The notes under the pieces are model-generated. The model had not been told where the DNA came from, did no database searches, and saw nothing but the letters and a program-made list of their open reading frames with translations. From an uncultured Bacillota bacterium (GTDB lineage: Bacteria; Bacillota_I; Bacilli_A; RF39; UBA660): a stretch of 64,000 bases of DNA. Location: contig CAMOSR010000001.1 of assembly GCA_946625165.1 (NCBI GenBank), positions 7,744 through 71,743 of the forward strand, in the 5' to 3' direction. Below, one piece after another: positions 7,612-17,292 of the stretch. Positions within the stretch are counted from its first letter, which is position 1, and every line of letters starts with the position of its first letter. A program made the translations under genes and the position numbers.

Positions 7612-8583
7612 ATGAGAAAACTTATCAGTGTGTTTATTATGATAGTTTTGCTTTTTATTGGGTTTGAAATTTTAGCAGAATCAGAAAGCATTTTAGAATC
7701 TGTAGTTTTTTCTTTAAATATATTTAAAAATAATATTTTCCCTTCGTTATTTCCTTTTCTAGTTTTATCTAGTTTACTTATTAGATATGGTTTTGTAGAA
7801 CTTTTTAGTGACTTATTTAAAGGGATTATGAATAAGCTTTTTAGGATAGATAGTAAATGTGCGTTTATTTTTTTTATGAGCATTATATCAGGAAATCCGG
7901 CTAATGCCAAATATACTAGAGAGCTTTATTTAAATGGAGAAATTAATAAGTATGAAGCTACTAAGATTCTTTGCTTTAGCTGTTTTACTTCACCTTTGTT
8001 TATTTTAGGAACTGTAACTTTGCTTTTAAATAATAAGGAAGTTGGGCTTTTAATACTTATTTGTCATTATTTAGGCAATGTAATTGTTGGAATTTTAATG
8101 CGAGGTTTTCATCCAAGCGTGACTTGTCATGAGAAATTTAGTTTAAAAAAAGCTATTGATAATATGCATATGAAAAGAATTAGTAATAACGAAAGTTTTG
8201 GGGTAATTATTACTAATTCTATAGTAAATAGTATAAATACTTTACTTTTGATATTGGGTGTTATCACGGTGTGTTTGGTTCTTACTACTATAATTGATAA
8301 CAATATTAATTTAAATAGTACTTTACAAAGTATATTAAATGGATTTGTTGAAATGACTCAGGGGCTTAAATATATTAGCCTAGAGCCTATTCCTCTAAAA
8401 CTTAAATGCACTCTTACTGTTATGATTTTATCATTTGGTGGGGTATCTGTGCATATGCAGATAATGAGTATTCTTTCTGATACGGATATTAAATATTTGC
8501 CTTTTTTATGTACAAGAATAATTTGTAGTATTATTTCGTCTTTTTTGGTTTTTATTTTATTTGATTTTTGGATTAATTTATAG
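7612..8583 (+). CDS. YlbJ-like sporulation integral membrane protein (nucleoside-recognition/Gate domains)
   Basis: Polytopic membrane protein of 323 aa. Synteny with the ylbL-like gene. Confidence 0.45.
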   Translation: MRKLISVFIMIVLLFIGFEILAESESILESVVFSLNIFKNNIFPSLFPFLVLSSLLIRYGFVELFSDLFKGIMNKLFRIDSKCAFIFFMSIISGNPANAKYTRELYLNGEINKYEATKILCFSCFTSPLFILGTVTLLLNNKEVGLLILICHYLGNVIVGILMRGFHPSVTCHEKFSLKKAIDNMHMKRISNNESFGVIITNSIVNSINTLLLILGVITVCLVLTTIIDNNINLNSTLQSILNGFVEMTQGLKYISLEPIPLKLKCTLTVMILSFGGVSVHMQIMSILSDTDIKYLPFLCTRIICSIISSFLVFILFDFWINL

Positions 8584-9022
8584 TGTAATAATAAACCACA
8601 TTGTATTCGTAGTCCTCTGAGAGGTTGGGACTTTTAAGTTTAAAATAGACTTTTAAATAGCAGTCATCGTTTAAGCAAGATGACATTAAATTCGCGTCGT
8701 TTATTGTTAAATTTTTATCGCCATCTTTAGGCATATCAAAGATTTGACCGGCCACTATGACATTATTTTCGTTTATGGTTATTAGTTTTTGGCCGTTTGC
8801 GGTGCATGATAGTCCTCTGCAGCTAATTGTACCTTTTTTTGGCATGTTATATTTTATGTTTTTTGATATAATAGCTAATCTTTCCTCACAATTTGTTTTT
8901 ATTGCTGTTTCGACAAAAACATCTTTTACGTTTATTAAAACTTCAAAGAGGAAAACACTGATAACCATGGTCAAGGCAAATGAGGCGATTAATTCAACAA
9001 CAGTAAAGCCATTTTTTTTCAT
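8573..9022 (-). CDS. Type IV pilin-like protein (prepilin N-terminal methylation domain), Cys-rich
   Basis: N-terminus MKKNGFTVVELIASFALTMVI, the class III signal peptide motif (G/FTxxE). Confidence 0.55.
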   Translation of the reverse strand: MKKNGFTVVELIASFALTMVISVFLFEVLINVKDVFVETAIKTNCEERLAIISKNIKYNMPKKGTISCRGLSCTANGQKLITINENNVIVAGQIFDMPKDGDKNLTINDANLMSSCLNDDCYLKVYFKLKSPNLSEDYEYNVVYYYTIN

Positions 9023-10286: not shown

Positions 10287-11624
10287 ATGATTAGATCTTT
10301 TGATTTTCAAAAGATGCCAATAGTTGATATTTTAAATGAAATTCTGGTTGATGCTGCTAAACGAGGCGCGAGTGATATTCATTTTGATCCGCATGCTGAC
10401 AAATTATTAATTAGAATTAGAGTTGATGGTATTTTGTGTGACTATGCAGAAGTGCCTAATGATGCTAGAGATTATTTAATAACCAGAATTAAAACTGTGG
10501 CGAGGATGAATATTACTGAATCTAGATTGCCACAGGATGGAGCCATAAAAGCTACTTTACAGGGAATTGATTTGGATTTGCGTGTGTCTTCTTTACCTGT
10601 TAGTACTGGTGAGAAAATAGTGATTCGTATCTTAGATTATTCTATGAGTATGGCCGGTTTAGGTGAGCTTGGTTTTAGTGATGAAAATTATAAAAAAATG
10701 TTAGAGATGATCAGTGTTCCTAGTGGAATTATATTAGTTACCGGGGCAACTGGTAGCGGTAAATCGACAACTGTATATTCAATCTTACAACATTTAAATA
10801 CTCCTTCTACCAATATTATTACTGTCGAAGATCCTATAGAGATGGATATTACTGGTATTAATCAAGTACAGGCAAATAGTAAGATTGGTCTTACGTTTGC
10901 GACAGCGTTAAGATCTATTTTGAGACAGGATCCGAATATCATAATGATTGGCGAAATTCGTGATACTGAAACTGCGAGAATTGCCGTTAGAGCTTCGATT
11001 ACTGGACATCTAGTTTTATCTACTTTGCACACAAACACTTCATTAAATACTATTGAACGATTGATTGATATGGATGTTCAAAAATATTTACTTGCTTCTT
11101 CTTTAGAAGGTGTTGTTGCTCAAAAACTTGCTAGAAAGCTTTGCAAACATTGTAAAACAAAGAGAAAAACAAGTAATTATGAAAAAATGATATTTAAGAC
11201 TGTTTTAGGAAAAGATATTGAAGAAATATATGATGCAGAAGGATGCGAATATTGTAATGACGGCTATCGCGGAAGAATTCCTATACATGAGGTTTTAAAA
11301 ATTAATCAAGAAATTCGTGATGCTTTAAGTGATGATGCTCCTAAAGAAAAGCTAAGGGAATTAGTTTATGGTGGCTCTGATGTTATTACTATGCTTCAGG
11401 ATGGATTGCAAAAAGTTGTAAATGGTGAAACGAGTTTTGAAGAAATTTTAAAATCAATTGAACTTGAAGATGATGAACATATAAATGACAATAGTTCTTT
11501 AAAAGAGGCTATTTCGGAAGCTAAATCAGTAATGGCAATGCACACTAATAATCAAAATTTAGAAGATAAAAAGATTCCAATAAATGATGATTTAGAAATG
11601 ACACAGACTGAAATATTATTTTAA
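10287..11624 (+). CDS. GspE/PilB/ComGA-family type IV pilus or competence assembly ATPase
   Basis: Walker A VTGATGSGKSTT, a tetracysteine motif CKHCK...CEYC, and the Asp and His boxes. Confidence 0.8.
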   Translation: MIRSFDFQKMPIVDILNEILVDAAKRGASDIHFDPHADKLLIRIRVDGILCDYAEVPNDARDYLITRIKTVARMNITESRLPQDGAIKATLQGIDLDLRVSSLPVSTGEKIVIRILDYSMSMAGLGELGFSDENYKKMLEMISVPSGIILVTGATGSGKSTTVYSILQHLNTPSTNIITVEDPIEMDITGINQVQANSKIGLTFATALRSILRQDPNIIMIGEIRDTETARIAVRASITGHLVLSTLHTNTSLNTIERLIDMDVQKYLLASSLEGVVAQKLARKLCKHCKTKRKTSNYEKMIFKTVLGKDIEEIYDAEGCEYCNDGYRGRIPIHEVLKINQEIRDALSDDAPKEKLRELVYGGSDVITMLQDGLQKVVNGETSFEEILKSIELEDDEHINDNSSLKEAISEAKSVMAMHTNNQNLEDKKIPINDDLEMTQTEILF

Positions 11625-14752: not shown

Positions 14753-14847
14753 TATTCTTCTATGTTTATTATACTATAAAACTTATGTTTTTAAAATAAA
14801 ACTCTTTTGATACTGCTTGTTTTTTTAATTGATTAGTCTTTTATTAT

Positions 14848-14878
14848 GATAAAAACTAGATATTTTCTATCTAGTTTG
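14848..14878. repeat. Palindromic hairpin AAAACTAGATA...TATCTAGTTT (second copy of the element at 12684)
   Basis: Seen directly; same stem sequence as at 12688-12712. Confidence 0.4.
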
Positions 14879-14887
14879 TTTTATTTA

Positions 14888-14913
14888 TGGTAGCCTGTAC
14901 GGGATTTGAACCC
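14888..14913 (-). repeat. 26-bp duplicate of the tRNA-Glu 3' end (att-like direct repeat)
   Basis: tggtagcctgtacgggatttgaaccc is identical to 17216-17241 and diverges immediately afterwards. Confidence 0.6.
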
Positions 14914-14967
14914 ATAATAGCTTTTTCCTTTATTTTTAAGCATTTTTTCAAGTTTATAAATTAATTT

Positions 14968-14991
14968 GGTCTTGTTTTTGGTCTTGTTTTG
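14968..14991. repeat. Tandem GGTCTTGTTTT(T) doublet (left copy)
   Basis: ggtcttgtttttggtcttgttttg. A near-identical doublet is at 17078-17103. Confidence 0.5.
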
Positions 14992-15009
14992 AAAATTATT
15001 CTTTATAAA

Positions 15010-16941
15010 CTATATTTTTCTTCCACCCTTTTCTGGATTGTTTTCGGCATATTCATCAGTTTCTTCCATTAATTGTTCAGCATCATTATGTTGCACTCTT
15101 GTTTCATATTCACTATTTACATATTTAATCAGATTTTGATAAGCCTCTTCGTTAGTTATTTTGCCTTCCCATAATTTATTCATAACATCTAAAAAATATG
15201 CTAACTCATTATCACTCAAATCATCGTTATATAATCTGTTTTCTCCAATTTTTAATTGTTCCAATACACTTCTCATAAATGATATATCATGCGATTTTTC
15301 AAACCATTCATCATCGGTAAAACTACCACCGTTAACTATTTCACAATTTTTTCTCATTAATGTCCCATCAGACAAAGACAAAGAATAAAATTCCATTGCT
15401 GATTTTTTAGCTTTAATCATATCTTCAGCTTTTTCTTCATCTGTTTTTTCAAATCTTTTAAAGAATGTATTAATCATATCTAGCTTTTCTTCTAATTCTC
15501 TCTCGTTTACACCAAGTGATAACAAATACTCTTTCGCATGTAATAAAACTTGTAATTTACCTATTATATCCATTTTATAATAATTAAATTCATCTTTTAA
15601 AGTTTCATATCTTTCGATAAATTTATCACAATTTGAATATAAATTAAGCAAAACATCATTCAAATATTGATTAAGAGCAGTTCCTAACAAATCATATATT
15701 CTATCTTTTTCTTCTTGTGGCAAATTTCTAAACCTATAATCTTCAAATAATGACCATTGATTTATTTCAAGTTCACTTAATTCAGAAATACCATAATCAG
15801 TTCCAGTTTTACCATAAAAATCATAATCACCTGCAAGTACATCTAAAATAAAACCGTATCTTCCACCTAAAATATTTAAATAATTTTCTGCAGCTTCTTT
15901 ATGCGAATCTATTTGCTGAAGTATTTTTGCAAGTTCATAATAGTCTAGCTCTGATGTTAATTCTTTTTTTAATGGACTAACGTATCTTTCGAACTTTATC
16001 TGTTGTATGTAGTCACCATATAAAGGATAATAAGATGTGTCATTAATATCTATATTGGTCATTGCTTCATTATTATAATTTAATAAGCTGTTTCGGATAA
16101 CATCTATATTACTTTGAATTTCACTTTTCGAAATACTATCAAGATCAAATATTCTCTCTGAAGGATCTTGAACAATAGATTTATCAAATTGAACATCAAA
16201 AAAATCAAACGAATCAGGAAAAAAATATGATAATGGTTCTTCTTTAGGAGTATGATATTTTCCCATCTTTTCATTACTAATAAAATCTTCAGAACCAAAC
16301 CATCTATAGTCACATAAGTTAGAGGTTAAATCCCATGTTAAATCAACACCAATAATTTTCCCATCAACCTCTATTAAATTATAATCATGTTCATGCATTC
16401 TATTTCTGAACAAGCATGGAATTCCTAGCCTATCCATGCCCTCTTTGAATGATAGTGCAAATCCAGCACACACTTGACGTTGATATAATAATCCATTCAA
16501 ACTTCTTAAAGTAGTACCTGCATTATGAATATCACTTTCATAATCCTTATAATCATAACTATTGTCTCTTGCTAATGCGCCATATAAAAACATAGCCTTT
16601 TGTGTTTCTGTCCACTCTGGTTTTATCATTCTTTCTATATTTTCGAAATACTCTATTACTTTAGAAAGTGCTTTCGGAGACATTAATGTTCTATCAAAAT
16701 AATCTCTATCCTTATATTTAGATTTTTCATCTGGATTAATCCCACCTCGAACACTAAAAAGAACATAGTCATTATCAATCATATTGATGATTTCGCTTTT
16801 TTGTCCAACAGTATTATCAAGGATTATAATTACTTGTGAAGTGAAAGCGTTAATTTCTTTAATATCTTCCTCAGTTAAACTTCCTTCAACTTTATAAAAA
16901 AAATCACCTAAATTATTTTCAGTTTTTTTGATATTTGCCAT
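15010..16941 (-). CDS. Transglutaminase-like superfamily cysteine protease domain protein (cytoplasmic, 643 aa)
   Basis: Core region QVCAGFALSFKEGMDRLGIPCLFRNRMHEHDYNLIEVDGKIIGVDLTWD has the Cys...His...Asp arrangement. No signal peptide. Confidence 0.5.
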   Translation of the reverse strand: MANIKKTENNLGDFFYKVEGSLTEEDIKEINAFTSQVIIILDNTVGQKSEIINMIDNDYVLFSVRGGINPDEKSKYKDRDYFDRTLMSPKALSKVIEYFENIERMIKPEWTETQKAMFLYGALARDNSYDYKDYESDIHNAGTTLRSLNGLLYQRQVCAGFALSFKEGMDRLGIPCLFRNRMHEHDYNLIEVDGKIIGVDLTWDLTSNLCDYRWFGSEDFISNEKMGKYHTPKEEPLSYFFPDSFDFFDVQFDKSIVQDPSERIFDLDSISKSEIQSNIDVIRNSLLNYNNEAMTNIDINDTSYYPLYGDYIQQIKFERYVSPLKKELTSELDYYELAKILQQIDSHKEAAENYLNILGGRYGFILDVLAGDYDFYGKTGTDYGISELSELEINQWSLFEDYRFRNLPQEEKDRIYDLLGTALNQYLNDVLLNLYSNCDKFIERYETLKDEFNYYKMDIIGKLQVLLHAKEYLLSLGVNERELEEKLDMINTFFKRFEKTDEEKAEDMIKAKKSAMEFYSLSLSDGTLMRKNCEIVNGGSFTDDEWFEKSHDISFMRSVLEQLKIGENRLYNDDLSDNELAYFLDVMNKLWEGKITNEEAYQNLIKYVNSEYETRVQHNDAEQLMEETDEYAENNPEKGGRKI

Positions 16942-17077
16942 ATTTATTGTTTCCCTTCTATATTTTAACCATTGCTTATATAAAATATAGCATAGATATT
17001 AATTAGAAACAATAATTTGAAATTTTTAATTGTATAAAAAATGTAAAGAAATTTTATATTATTATCAAATATTTTTG

Positions 17078-17103
17078 ATCTTGTTTTGGTCTTGTTTTGG
17101 TCA
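17078..17103. repeat. Tandem GGTCTTGTTTT doublet (right copy)
   Basis: gatcttgttttggtcttgttttggtc. Confidence 0.5.
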
Positions 17104-17215
17104 AAAATAACCCTTTTTCATCAAAAATAGTGCTTGACAAAAAACGTGAAAAATCATAACAAAACCCTTATAAAATAAGAAAAAGTCTTAAATATCAAGA
17201 CTTTTATAAACTAAA

Positions 17216-17292
17216 TGGTAGCCTGTACGGGATTTGAACCCGTGAGTGCCGCCTTGAGAGGGCGGTGTGTTAAACCACTTCACCAACAGGCC
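17216..17292 (-). tRNA. tRNA-Glu (anticodon CUC)
   Basis: The reverse complement gives a 77-nt cloverleaf: GGCCTGT acceptor, anticodon stem CCGCC/GGCGG with loop CTCTCAA, T-arm ACGGG-TTCAAAT-CCCGT, encoded CCA. Pair 1:72 is G-U. Confidence 0.8.

Follow-up and report, generated by a model that had tools for sequence, protein, structure and literature searches.

Results and Discussion

We analysed a 64-kb stretch of DNA (64,000 nucleotides, hereafter the window), in which an islet lies at the 3' end of a tRNA-Glu gene. The islet is probably the integrase-less remnant of a temperate-phage-type integrating element, mobilized in trans in the manner of a cis-mobilizable element (CIME).

Boundaries and content of the islet

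The last 26 nt of tRNA-Glu (17216-17241) were found again, exactly and in the same orientation, at 14888-14913, giving a repeat-to-repeat distance of 2.3 kb. An earlier, sequence-only reading of this DNA had reported this recurrence, and ARAGORN together with a repeat search upheld it; the exact repeat is 27 nt once one flanking base is added (14887-14913 = 17215-17241). In a shuffle control, 100 shuffles gave 0 matches to the tRNA end with 3 mismatches allowed. That reading had also described a single gene between the copies and no integrase, and both points stood. The only long open reading frame between the repeats is 15010-16941 (minus strand, 643 aa), integrase, excisionase and transfer genes are absent from 14888-17216, and tblastn with three cognate-family integrases as queries gave no match in the whole 64-kb window. 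The composition differs as well, with a GC content of 0.24-0.32 in the islet (mostly 0.25-0.30) compared to mostly 0.29-0.38 in the adjacent genes, and with an AT skew unlike that of these genes. The features, read along the tRNA strand, are:

17216-17292, minus strand: tRNA-Glu(CTC), gene intact (ARAGORN)
17216-17241, minus strand: att core, tRNA-proximal repeat copy, the last 26 nt of tRNA-Glu (exact repeat)
17099-17215, minus strand: element-supplied arm beside the tRNA, starting TTTAG (collinear with the attP of phage L091)
about 17174-17205, minus strand: replacement terminator hairpin with U-run, in the tRNA-side arm (-8.8 kcal/mol, z=-2.6)
17132-17143, minus strand: TTTTTGTCAAGC box in the tRNA-side arm
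17077-17098, minus strand: tRNA-proximal doublet, AAACAAGACC / AAACAAGATC on the tRNA strand, 11-nt spacing (same spacing and inter-doublet distance in the attPs of L091, L104, L136, L194 and L108)
17030-17076, minus strand: stretch past the tRNA-proximal doublet, homologous to phage DNA beside attP (blastn and alignment)
16942-17029, minus strand: upstream region and 5' UTR of the cargo gene (read from sequence)
15010-16941, minus strand: cargo gene, soluble 643-aa protein (only long open reading frame)
14992-15009, minus strand: possible remnant of the last codons of a lost integrase, directly upstream of the KQDQKQDQ-coding doublet (match to L094/L109)
14968-14990, minus strand: distal doublet, AAACAAGACC twice, 12-nt spacing, two perfect units (KQDQKQDQ-coding in intact elements)
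14914-14967, minus strand: short arm of about 54 nt, from distal doublet to core (collinear with the L091 attP)
14887-14913, minus strand: distal att core, the displaced original tRNA-Glu 3' end, 27 nt (exact repeat)
14846-14884, minus strand: native tRNA-Glu terminator hairpin, outside the element and stranded behind the distal repeat (inverted repeat; -9.9 kcal/mol, z=-5.4)

Short tRNA repeats can break or mis-join metagenome assemblies, and two contigs of the window's strain do end 47 nt past the neighbouring gene. However, the islet was recovered at 99.96-100% identity on the 6 further contigs compared, from several samples and independent assemblers, and is thus not an assembly artefact; its 643-aa protein is recorded on 9 contigs. 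The arms are moreover homologous to phage attP, which also argues against a local tRNA duplication without any mobile element. Misassembly and chance duplication are therefore both highly improbable, and we rejected them.

Empty sites and probable spread between species

The locus of a second carrier species (L001) corresponds to an empty locus (L008) plus about 2.3 kb; the left flanks are 100% and the right flanks 99.6% identical, and the two alignments overlap on a 32-nt repeat. Two other loci, L009 and L007, are also empty, and both arrangements of the flanks have an empty counterpart (L008 for L001, L009 for the window). Homology between the window and L001 stops exactly at the distal repeat, and in the comparison with L009 homology to the window resumes at 14801. 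A hairpin follows directly after the tRNA in all three empty sites, and none of them carries the arms. These clean empty sites in relatives show that the islet is an insertion, confirming the att junctions proposed from the sequence alone, and the open reading frame is accordingly not a conserved core gene lacking an empty allele. A look-up in the window's own strain via the neighbouring NTP-transferase gene returned no empty allele, all contigs being occupied or truncated at this site.

The repeat of 32 nt in L001 runs 6 nt (AGAAAT) past the tRNA, into the native flank. Native flank reaches as far as the core on either side in L001. The two crossovers therefore fall within 27-32 nt, a pattern that fits site-specific and not homologous recombination. 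Between the window and L001, identity is 78.6% in the NTP-transferase gene, 87-91% in the arms (91.4% for the short arm with the distal doublet), 96.3% in the wider region upstream of the cargo gene (16942-17076) and 98.6% in the open reading frame, with nothing shared past the distal repeat, where the flanks are unrelated (nusB in one species, a GltD-like gene in the other). The flanking core DNA of the two carrier species is thus only about 78% identical while the islet interior reaches 98.6%, and both species have the same minimal structure, with the same internal junctions, in the same tRNA; the second species has the empty allele (L008) as well. Together with junctions that lie within the core, this difference suggests integrase-mediated movement in trans.

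Two further loci form a decay series. In L063 only the arms are left; the repeat is down to one unit and the distal core is degenerate. In L003 the gene is frameshifted and the distal arm lost; the cargo-to-doublet junction is identical to that in the window and L001, homology breaks off exactly at the distal doublet, beyond which the tail is unrelated chromosomal DNA (Rfam gave no match in the L003 tail motif or its L047 counterpart). The sequence-only reading had offered a decayed island or a minimal mobile unit as alternatives; the islet appears to be both at once, as the decayed form itself has apparently moved between species.

A different account of these data is that a prophage integrated once, decayed and became immobile, and that its scar was shared between species by homologous recombination after natural transformation or transduction. 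The missing integrase and the decay in L003 and L063 agree with this, and so does the presence of competence-type genes in these bacteria (a T2SSE ATPase is encoded at 10287-11624, and relatives have pilin-like and ComEC genes). The identity gradient, with arms below interior, also resembles a recombination patchwork. Against it, the flanks of L001 match those of L008 up to the core, so that a double crossover could have drawn on no more than 27-32 nt of homology on each side, and the unrelated distal flanks of the two carriers are also hard to reconcile with such an exchange. We therefore regard an inert scar as unlikely, an assessment to which the attP geometry described below adds, since neutral decay would not keep it intact to the base.

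The islet ends rebuild a phage-type attP

Joined at the tRNA core, the two islet ends make up a complete attP. Its order is the integrase 3' end (in intact elements), the 12-nt-spaced doublet, the 54-nt arm, the 26-nt tRNA core and TTTAG, followed by the replacement terminator, the TTGTCAA and TTGAC boxes and the 11-nt-spaced doublet. The TTGAC box stands immediately before this last doublet, and both boxes are common to L001, L003, L063, L091 and L218. The rebuilt site is collinear throughout with positions 8521-8960 of L091 (75% identity over 320 columns), a temperate phage with an endolysin, a PF00589 integrase, cI/cro-like regulators and a replication initiator. Homology was also seen by blastn, where window positions 17030-17222 matched L091 and L102 at 72% over 196 nt.

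The doublet units lie at offsets 0, 12, 220 and 231 in both the window reconstruction and L091, and at 0, 12, 210-223 and 221-234 in L104, L136 and L194; the far arm of L108 holds a cluster of up to seven repeat units. In all six, the same short repeat thus stands on both attP arms at a fixed distance from the core. The sequence-only reading had noticed the tandem doublets, with coordinates slightly off, and left them unexplained. We located them at 14968-14990 and at 17077-17098, the latter being GATCTTGTTTT plus GGTCTTGTTTT at 11-nt spacing, followed by GGTC of a third unit. The single 11-mer GGTCTTGTTTT is not significantly enriched in the window (6 found compared to 2.7 expected; 6/100 shuffles reach 6), and the reality of the doublets follows from the comparative evidence instead. 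Exact doublet-pattern scans of IMG/VR and JGI metagenomes returned mostly unrelated low-complexity sequence (marine contigs, KQDQ repeat proteins) and were filtered by blastn against the islet.

The doublets are thus real and correspond to the arm-repeat clusters on either arm of a phage-type attP. In intact elements one cluster overlaps the integrase 3' end, where it encodes the C-terminal KQDQKQDQ shared by about 19 divergent tyrosine integrases, and the other doublet is non-coding in the phages. Judged from their arrangement, both are probably arm-type integrase-binding sites, the tRNA-proximal one on the non-coding arm. No Pfam arm-binding domain was found in these integrases at E<=5, despite about 200 residues N-terminal to PF00589. 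A 45-nt stretch of the window (14965-15009) is 93% identical to the 3' end of the integrase gene in L094 and L109; 23-24 of these nucleotides belong to the doublet. The islet may retain no more than about 20 nt of an integrase 3' end, with modest support from a match that is short and AT-rich.

An alternative in which the cassette between the doublets is the mobile unit, integron-like, and lands in a pre-existing pad of arms draws on the same observations. Identity between species is higher in the interior than in the arms, L063 has arms and a single repeat unit without cargo, and L003 loses homology exactly at the distal doublet. However, the doublets belong to the phage attP and to an integrase reading frame, and the empty sites without arms show that arms and cargo arrived together. 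No other cargo was seen between such arms in any locus, deletion between direct repeats accounts for L063, and in L003 the gene is broken and the tail is unrelated chromosomal DNA. We consider this alternative very improbable and rejected it as well.

The cargo gene and its protein

By eye, we infer a candidate promoter (TTGTTT-17-TATATT) and a ribosome-binding site (GGGAAAC) for the cargo gene; consensus scans for promoters and terminators were uninformative in AT-rich DNA, the promoter signal not being above chance. In the 643-aa protein, an alpha/beta domain at the N terminus is followed by a transglutaminase-like core (about aa 105-235) and then by a long C-terminal region that is helical. 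C158, H185 and D200 are invariant in 25 homologues and, in a profile search, align with the Cys, His and Asp motifs of PDB 9crn, and the core resembles solved transglutaminase-like/papain-like members in fold. From its sequence, the cargo is a cytoplasmic protein with a transglutaminase-like Cys-His-Asp fold, as had been proposed, and structural similarity to Cys-His-Asp proteases is present. The family searches suggested with that proposal were of mixed outcome. No Pfam family was found at E<=1, the match to NCBIfam NF045980 was weak and below threshold (38.8 bits compared to a cut-off of 450), and the profile alignment to 9crn succeeded. A profile was needed for this, as phmmer against PDB gave nothing, and Foldseek of the whole model against PDB returned noise only. 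PADLOC and PHROGs scans of the protein gave no match.

The cargo family is rare and found only as solitary accessory genes on mobile elements, namely in the att islet, in a conjugative T4SS cluster and on a Mob_Pre contig. Outside the islet cluster, its closest relative is the 80% homologue in the conjugative T4SS cluster, and a search of IMG/VR gave 0 homologues. Most likely the cargo protein modifies or cleaves a target protein, from which the element or its host would profit.

A model for origin and mobilization

The cis sites all retain their geometry, and the remnant should therefore still be a substrate for an integrase (plus excisionase) provided in trans. We propose that an ancestral element entered the 3' end of tRNA-Glu(CTC) by tyrosine-integrase recombination, and that one or more deletions then took the interior of the phage as far as the last ~20 nt of int. 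Integrase and excisionase acting in trans would excise and re-integrate the remnant, the helper being a related phage with the same tRNA-Glu core specificity, and the remnant possibly travels as a tandem co-integrate with this helper. The predicted circular junction of the excised islet is ...AAAGGAAAAAGCTATTAT-GGGTTCAAATCCCGTACAGGCTACCA-TTTAGTTTATAAAAGTCTTG, and the restored attB is predicted to be tRNA-Glu followed by TAAATAAAACAAACTAGATAG. A helper integrase was found neither in the 64-kb window nor in 86 related loci, and 26-nt and 18-nt versions of the window's tRNA-Glu core matched 0 IMG/VR contigs.

Several observations speak against parts of this model. Besides the negative searches for a helper, they include the lack of an empty allele in the window's own strain, the 6-nt extension of the L001 repeat and the lack of a Pfam arm-binding domain in the integrases; neither a circular form nor an attP junction was seen. 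The arms diverge by about 11% between the window and L001 and the interior by 1.4-3.7%, which is not expected if the whole unit is simply transferred; an exchange of arms with helpers, or mosaic recombination, would be needed to account for it. As for the cargo, the lack of a relative in IMG/VR phages and the nearest relative beyond the islet cluster, in a conjugative element, weaken the case for a phage origin.

A bolder version, which we put forward tentatively and as rather less likely than not to hold, makes the islet a non-autonomous 'miniature integrative element' that hitch-hikes actively, a bare attP around one gene. If true, it would spread among uncultured gut/rumen Bacilli species via integrases borrowed from a large phage family that shares an arm-site code of AAACAAGACC doublets, one of them written into the KQDQKQDQ tail, and arm swapping with helpers would account for arms that diverge more than the cargo.

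Significance and comparison with known systems

The remnant, with its proposed mobilization in trans, overturns nothing in current understanding. It is a clean, dissected case of a tRNA-borne element reduced to two attachment sites and one gene and apparently still crossing species; its host belongs to a rumen lineage that is uncultured and has small genomes. The case further defines how attP is organized in a family of temperate phages of gut Bacilli that is widespread but undescribed. The repeat doublets are conserved and their spacing is fixed, the tRNA core lies in either orientation, and a replacement terminator is built in. This architecture could be used for locating prophage ends and remnants in metagenome-assembled genomes. 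A rare transglutaminase-like family that travels only on mobile elements is in addition a candidate for an element-benefit function.

The closest parallel is the CIMEs of Firmicutes, which were defined for decayed ICEs and IMEs (PMC5704250). The islet likewise keeps attL and attR without integrase, excisionase or transfer genes, likewise sits in a tRNA 3' end, and by analogy is expected to move only via the recombinase of a related element, possibly after tandem accretion. It differs in that its arms belong to a temperate-phage family and not to a known ICE/IME, although its cargo has the 80% homologue in a conjugative T4SS cluster. It is also extremely small, with one gene in 2.3 kb, and its mobilization is deduced from comparative data. 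Compared to phage satellites (PICI, P4-like), the islet has neither an integrase of its own nor packaging-hijack genes, and its sole gene has no PHROG match.

The cargo shares a transglutaminase-like core, with the motifs vCaGfA, HafNvie and DvTW, with Streptococcus pyogenes TglA (PDB 9crn) and the MAG6410 lipoprotein family (NF045980). Unlike these, it has no lipoprotein signal, only about 130-160 residues match (17% identity), and its N-terminal domain and 400-residue helical C-terminal part are unique to its family.

In lambda attP, arm-type integrase sites lie on the P and P' arms; L5, Tn916 and P2 have arm-type sites too. The islet attP is similar in having tandem short direct repeats that flank the core at a mutual distance of about 220 bp, in lying directly downstream of int (in intact elements), and in using a tRNA 3' end as core, with the element bringing a replacement 3' end and terminator. 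Unlike in lambda-type sites, one repeat cluster is inside the integrase frame, coding KQDQKQDQ, and the integrases have no known arm-binding Pfam domain at E<=5.

Like cryptic prophage remnants and moron islets, the islet consists of a single accessory gene with its own upstream region left at a phage att site. In contrast to them, its cargo has the nearest relative beyond the islet cluster in a conjugative element and not in a phage, both att sites are complete and correctly spaced, and the unit is present in two species at 98.6% identity.

Structure of the islet

The sequence-only reading described a duplicated tRNA-Glu 3' end enclosing a single gene, and both points were borne out. The last 26 nt of the tRNA-Glu(CTC) gene recur exactly (27 nt with one flanking base added), no such repeat arose in 100 shuffles with up to three mismatches permitted, and only one long ORF, the cargo, lies between the copies.

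Features of the islet
14888-14913: exact copy of the last 26 nt of tRNA-Glu(CTC) (distal repeat)
14968-14990: distal GGTCTTGTTTT doublet, 12-nt spacing
15010-16941, minus strand: cargo ORF, 643 aa, sole long ORF between the tRNA repeats
17077-17098: tRNA-proximal GGTCTTGTTTT doublet, 11-nt spacing, first unit GATCTTGTTTT
17216-17292, minus strand: tRNA-Glu(CTC), ARAGORN

The islet is flanked by housekeeping genes, with NTP-transferase, acetate kinase, FtsY and RNase J on one side and a GltD-like oxidoreductase, SDR and T2SSE ATPase on the other. The proposed GC check showed it to be somewhat AT-richer than its neighbours (0.24-0.32 vs mostly 0.29-0.38). An assembly artefact was ruled out, since the 6 further contigs that were compared, from several rumen samples, carry the islet at 99.96-100% identity; the cargo protein is on record for 9 contigs. 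The tRNA's native terminator hairpin has been left on the far side of the distal repeat (-9.9 kcal/mol, z=-5.4), and the tRNA gets a terminator hairpin from the element itself (-8.8 kcal/mol).

The islet ends as a phage-type attP

The single 11-mer was not significantly enriched within the window, so the meaning of the doublets had to be sought by comparison. IMG/VR and metagenomes were scanned for the doublet and hits were filtered by blastn against the islet. This yielded loci where the doublet directly adjoins a gene for a tyrosine integrase. PF00589 is matched by the integrases of L091/L102 (449 aa), L097 and L109 (420 aa each), whose C-terminal tails contain KQDQKQDQ, encoded by AAACAAGACCAAAAACAAGACC. 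Altogether, viral and metagenome contigs (L087-L223) supplied ~19 divergent tyrosine integrases that end in ...KQDQKQDQ... with the same 22-nt DNA doublet (e.g. L091 8561-8582, L097 13861-13882, L109 922-943 and L104 7714-7735). Their attPs have a tRNA 3' end as core, in either orientation, and a second doublet 210-234 nt downstream, spaced by 11 nt rather than the 12 nt of the integrase side. This second doublet is non-coding, thus conservation acts at the DNA level.

L091 is a genuine temperate phage, with the gene order endolysin, integrase, attP, cI-like (opposite strand), cro-like and replication initiator. Its attP (8521-8960) runs from the integrase 3' end through a doublet, a ~55-nt arm and the 27-nt 3' end of a different tRNA to TTTAG, a hairpin with a T-run, a TTTTGTCAAC box, TTGAC and the second doublet. 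When the attP of the window was reconstructed by joining 15040 down to 14888 to 17215 down to 17021, it was collinear with that of L091 (75% identity across 320 columns), and the repeat units stood at offsets 0, 12, 220 and 231 in both. Three further attPs with other tRNA cores in either orientation (L104, L136, L194) have offsets of 0, 12, 210-223 and 221-234, and the far arm of another (L108) holds as many as seven clustered units. The doublets that had been noted inside both tRNA repeats are hence explained as attP parts. Heterobivalent tyrosine integrases give an established basis for reading such doublets as arm-type sites, and by analogy with lambda-type attP we infer that they are integrase-binding sites of this kind; Pfam detected no arm-binding domain in these integrases. 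The same long arm and doublet also follow a tRNA-Gly(TCC) gene (L218 14141-14360 and L212 1938-2156), indicating that the phage family uses several tRNA targets with conserved arms. The next gene in L218 resembles, by eye, the peptidoglycan-binding C-terminal part of an endolysin.

Absence of the phage body

As first described, the islet holds no integrase or excisionase. The suggested search for a recombinase elsewhere was negative, as tblastn gave no match to cognate-family integrases either within the 64-kb window or across 86 related loci. On the tRNA side, phage DNA homology continues ~47 nt beyond the doublet, to 17030. On the other side, the 18 nt separating the cargo stop codon from the distal doublet (14992-15009) are similar to the 3'-terminal codons of the integrase genes of L094/L109 and L097 (93% over 45 nt, doublet counted in) and are plausibly an integrase remnant, though short and AT-rich. 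Since phage homology ends at 17030 and at this putative remnant, the cargo and its upstream region replace the whole phage body.

The cargo protein

Only 31 relatives of the cargo were found among 5.8 billion clustered proteins, and none in IMG/VR. C158, H185 and D200, together with T202, W203 and D204, are invariant in an alignment of 25 of the 31. The family profile matches PDB 9crn (transglutaminase-like, S. pyogenes TglA; E=2e-10) in a way that lines up the Cys, His and Asp motifs, and no hydrophobic segment was found (Kyte-Doolittle maximum 0.94 over 19 residues), in agreement with the cytoplasmic transglutaminase-like protein originally proposed. The match to NCBIfam NF045980, a transglutaminase-related lipoprotein family (E=4e-10), is far under the cut-off of that model; Pfam gave no match to the 643-aa protein and Foldseek with the cargo model no useful one. 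What remains of the protein is a small alpha/beta domain at the N terminus plus ~400 helical residues that gave no informative match.

The homologue cluster with 80% identity is encoded within a conjugative T4SS gene cluster of Gram-positive type (L241 1-22007), in the order TrbL, PrgI, VirB4-like ATPase, CHAP hydrolase, a 115-aa protein, the homologue (668 aa) and, further on, a VirD4-like coupling protein; TrbC is also present. AAA+ ATPase and ClpP-like protease genes are found nearby. Nucleotide homology between the window and this homologue is limited to the ORF (16901-15105, 85%). Relatives at 31% identity are solitary genes by a Mob_Pre relaxase, near Ku/LigD or between core genes. Two family paralogues (594 and 611 aa) adjoin a Mob_Pre relaxase on the contig L240 (8001-14446), which probably represents a mobilizable plasmid or IME. 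These settings indicate that the family is an accessory gene of mobile elements. The cargo most likely modifies protein or is proteolytic, to the element's benefit.

Empty sites and decay

The host belongs to uncultured rumen/gut Bacilli, and related MAGs carry the labels Erysipelotrichaceae, Firmicutes or Bacilli. Related loci were retrieved with the neighbouring NTP-transferase gene as query, and the proposed comparison for empty sites was successful. L009 has the window's arrangement without the islet (ackA, NTP-transferase, tRNA-Glu, hairpin, GltD-like gene), and L007 and L008, also without it, have nusB-xseA after the hairpin. The rumen contig L001 carries the islet in the nusB arrangement, with a cargo protein 98% identical to that of the window. 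Compared with L008, it is 100% identical across the left 639 nt and 99.6% across the right 5.3 kb, and a 32-nt repeat is covered by both alignments. L001 thus amounts to L008 with an additional ~2.3 kb, which makes the islet a presence/absence polymorphism inside one species. DNA 3' of tRNA-Glu varies among similarly related species (nusB-xseA-xseB, or a GltD-like gene and SDR; window 14801-14887 vs L001 2959-3030, L007, L008 and L009), so the att site coincides with a synteny breakpoint.

Reduced forms were also found. L063 (10180-10360, RUG357) is cargo-less, with the order tRNA, tRNA-side arm, one AAAACAAGATCAAA unit at which both attP arms are fused, short arm, degenerate core (4 mismatches in 26, 155 nt from the tRNA end) and GltD-like gene. 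This attP-only scar is best attributed to deletion between the two direct doublets. The L003 cargo is frameshifted (521 + 122 aa), and unrelated chromosomal DNA directly follows its distal doublet. In other species, L124 (700-860) and L179 (1830-2075) have doublet remnants directly 3' of their own tRNA-Glu(CTC) but lack an integrase next to them. Elements of this kind appear to decay recurrently at tRNA-Glu(CTC). Separately, L003 (2268-2437), L047 (2870-2960) and L045 (11455-11500, reverse strand) share a conserved non-coding motif, ...GTCAAGGAAACTTGCATAAAATAAAAAAGGGAACATTCA-hairpin-TGAATGCC..., that had no match in Rfam and could represent a leader or small RNA that has escaped annotation.

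Probable movement of the minimal form

Identity between the window and L001
NTP-transferase gene: 78.6%
tRNA: 97.4%
tRNA-side arm: 87.5%
Cargo upstream region: 96.3%
ORF: 98.6%
Distal doublet plus arm: 91.4%
Past the distal repeat: unrelated

Core DNA of the window is 77-80% identical to L007, L009 and L063 over kilobases, and homology to L001 ends exactly at the distal repeat. The cargo-to-doublet junction is common to the window, L001 and L003, so these lineages share an already-reduced element. As the L001 flanks are native up to the core, both crossovers fall within 27-32 nt. RecA-type recombination could scarcely place both inside so short a stretch. attP x attB recombination gives crossovers of this kind, and we favour integration of a putative circular form of the islet by an integrase supplied in trans.

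Several observations weaken this trans-mobilization reading. No helper integrase was found, either by the tblastn searches or by tRNA-Glu-core searches of IMG/VR, and no circular form was observed. Every contig of the window's own strain is occupied or truncated; two of the latter (L250, L251) stop 47 nt past the NTP-transferase gene, just ahead of the tRNA; the assembly may have broken at the repeat, or the site may vary within the population. Divergence is higher in the arms than in the islet interior, for which repeated arm exchange with helpers could account. Finally, the 32-nt direct repeat of L001 takes in 6 nt of native post-tRNA flank, AGAAAT (634-639 and 2959-2964). At the tRNA-proximal junction these stand in place of the TTTAG of the window, L003 and phage L091, a difference that a simple core crossover does not account for.

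Taken together, our results uphold the initial interpretation of an att-bounded, decayed or minimal mobile unit. It is of moderate interest for the comparative evidence that an integrase-less form crossed a species boundary, and for the well-defined attP architecture of an undescribed phage family of uncultured Bacilli. Integration by a recombinase acting in trans is the behaviour defined for cis-mobilizable elements (CIMEs; PMC5704250), and the islet is most aptly classed as a CIME-like remnant of phage type.
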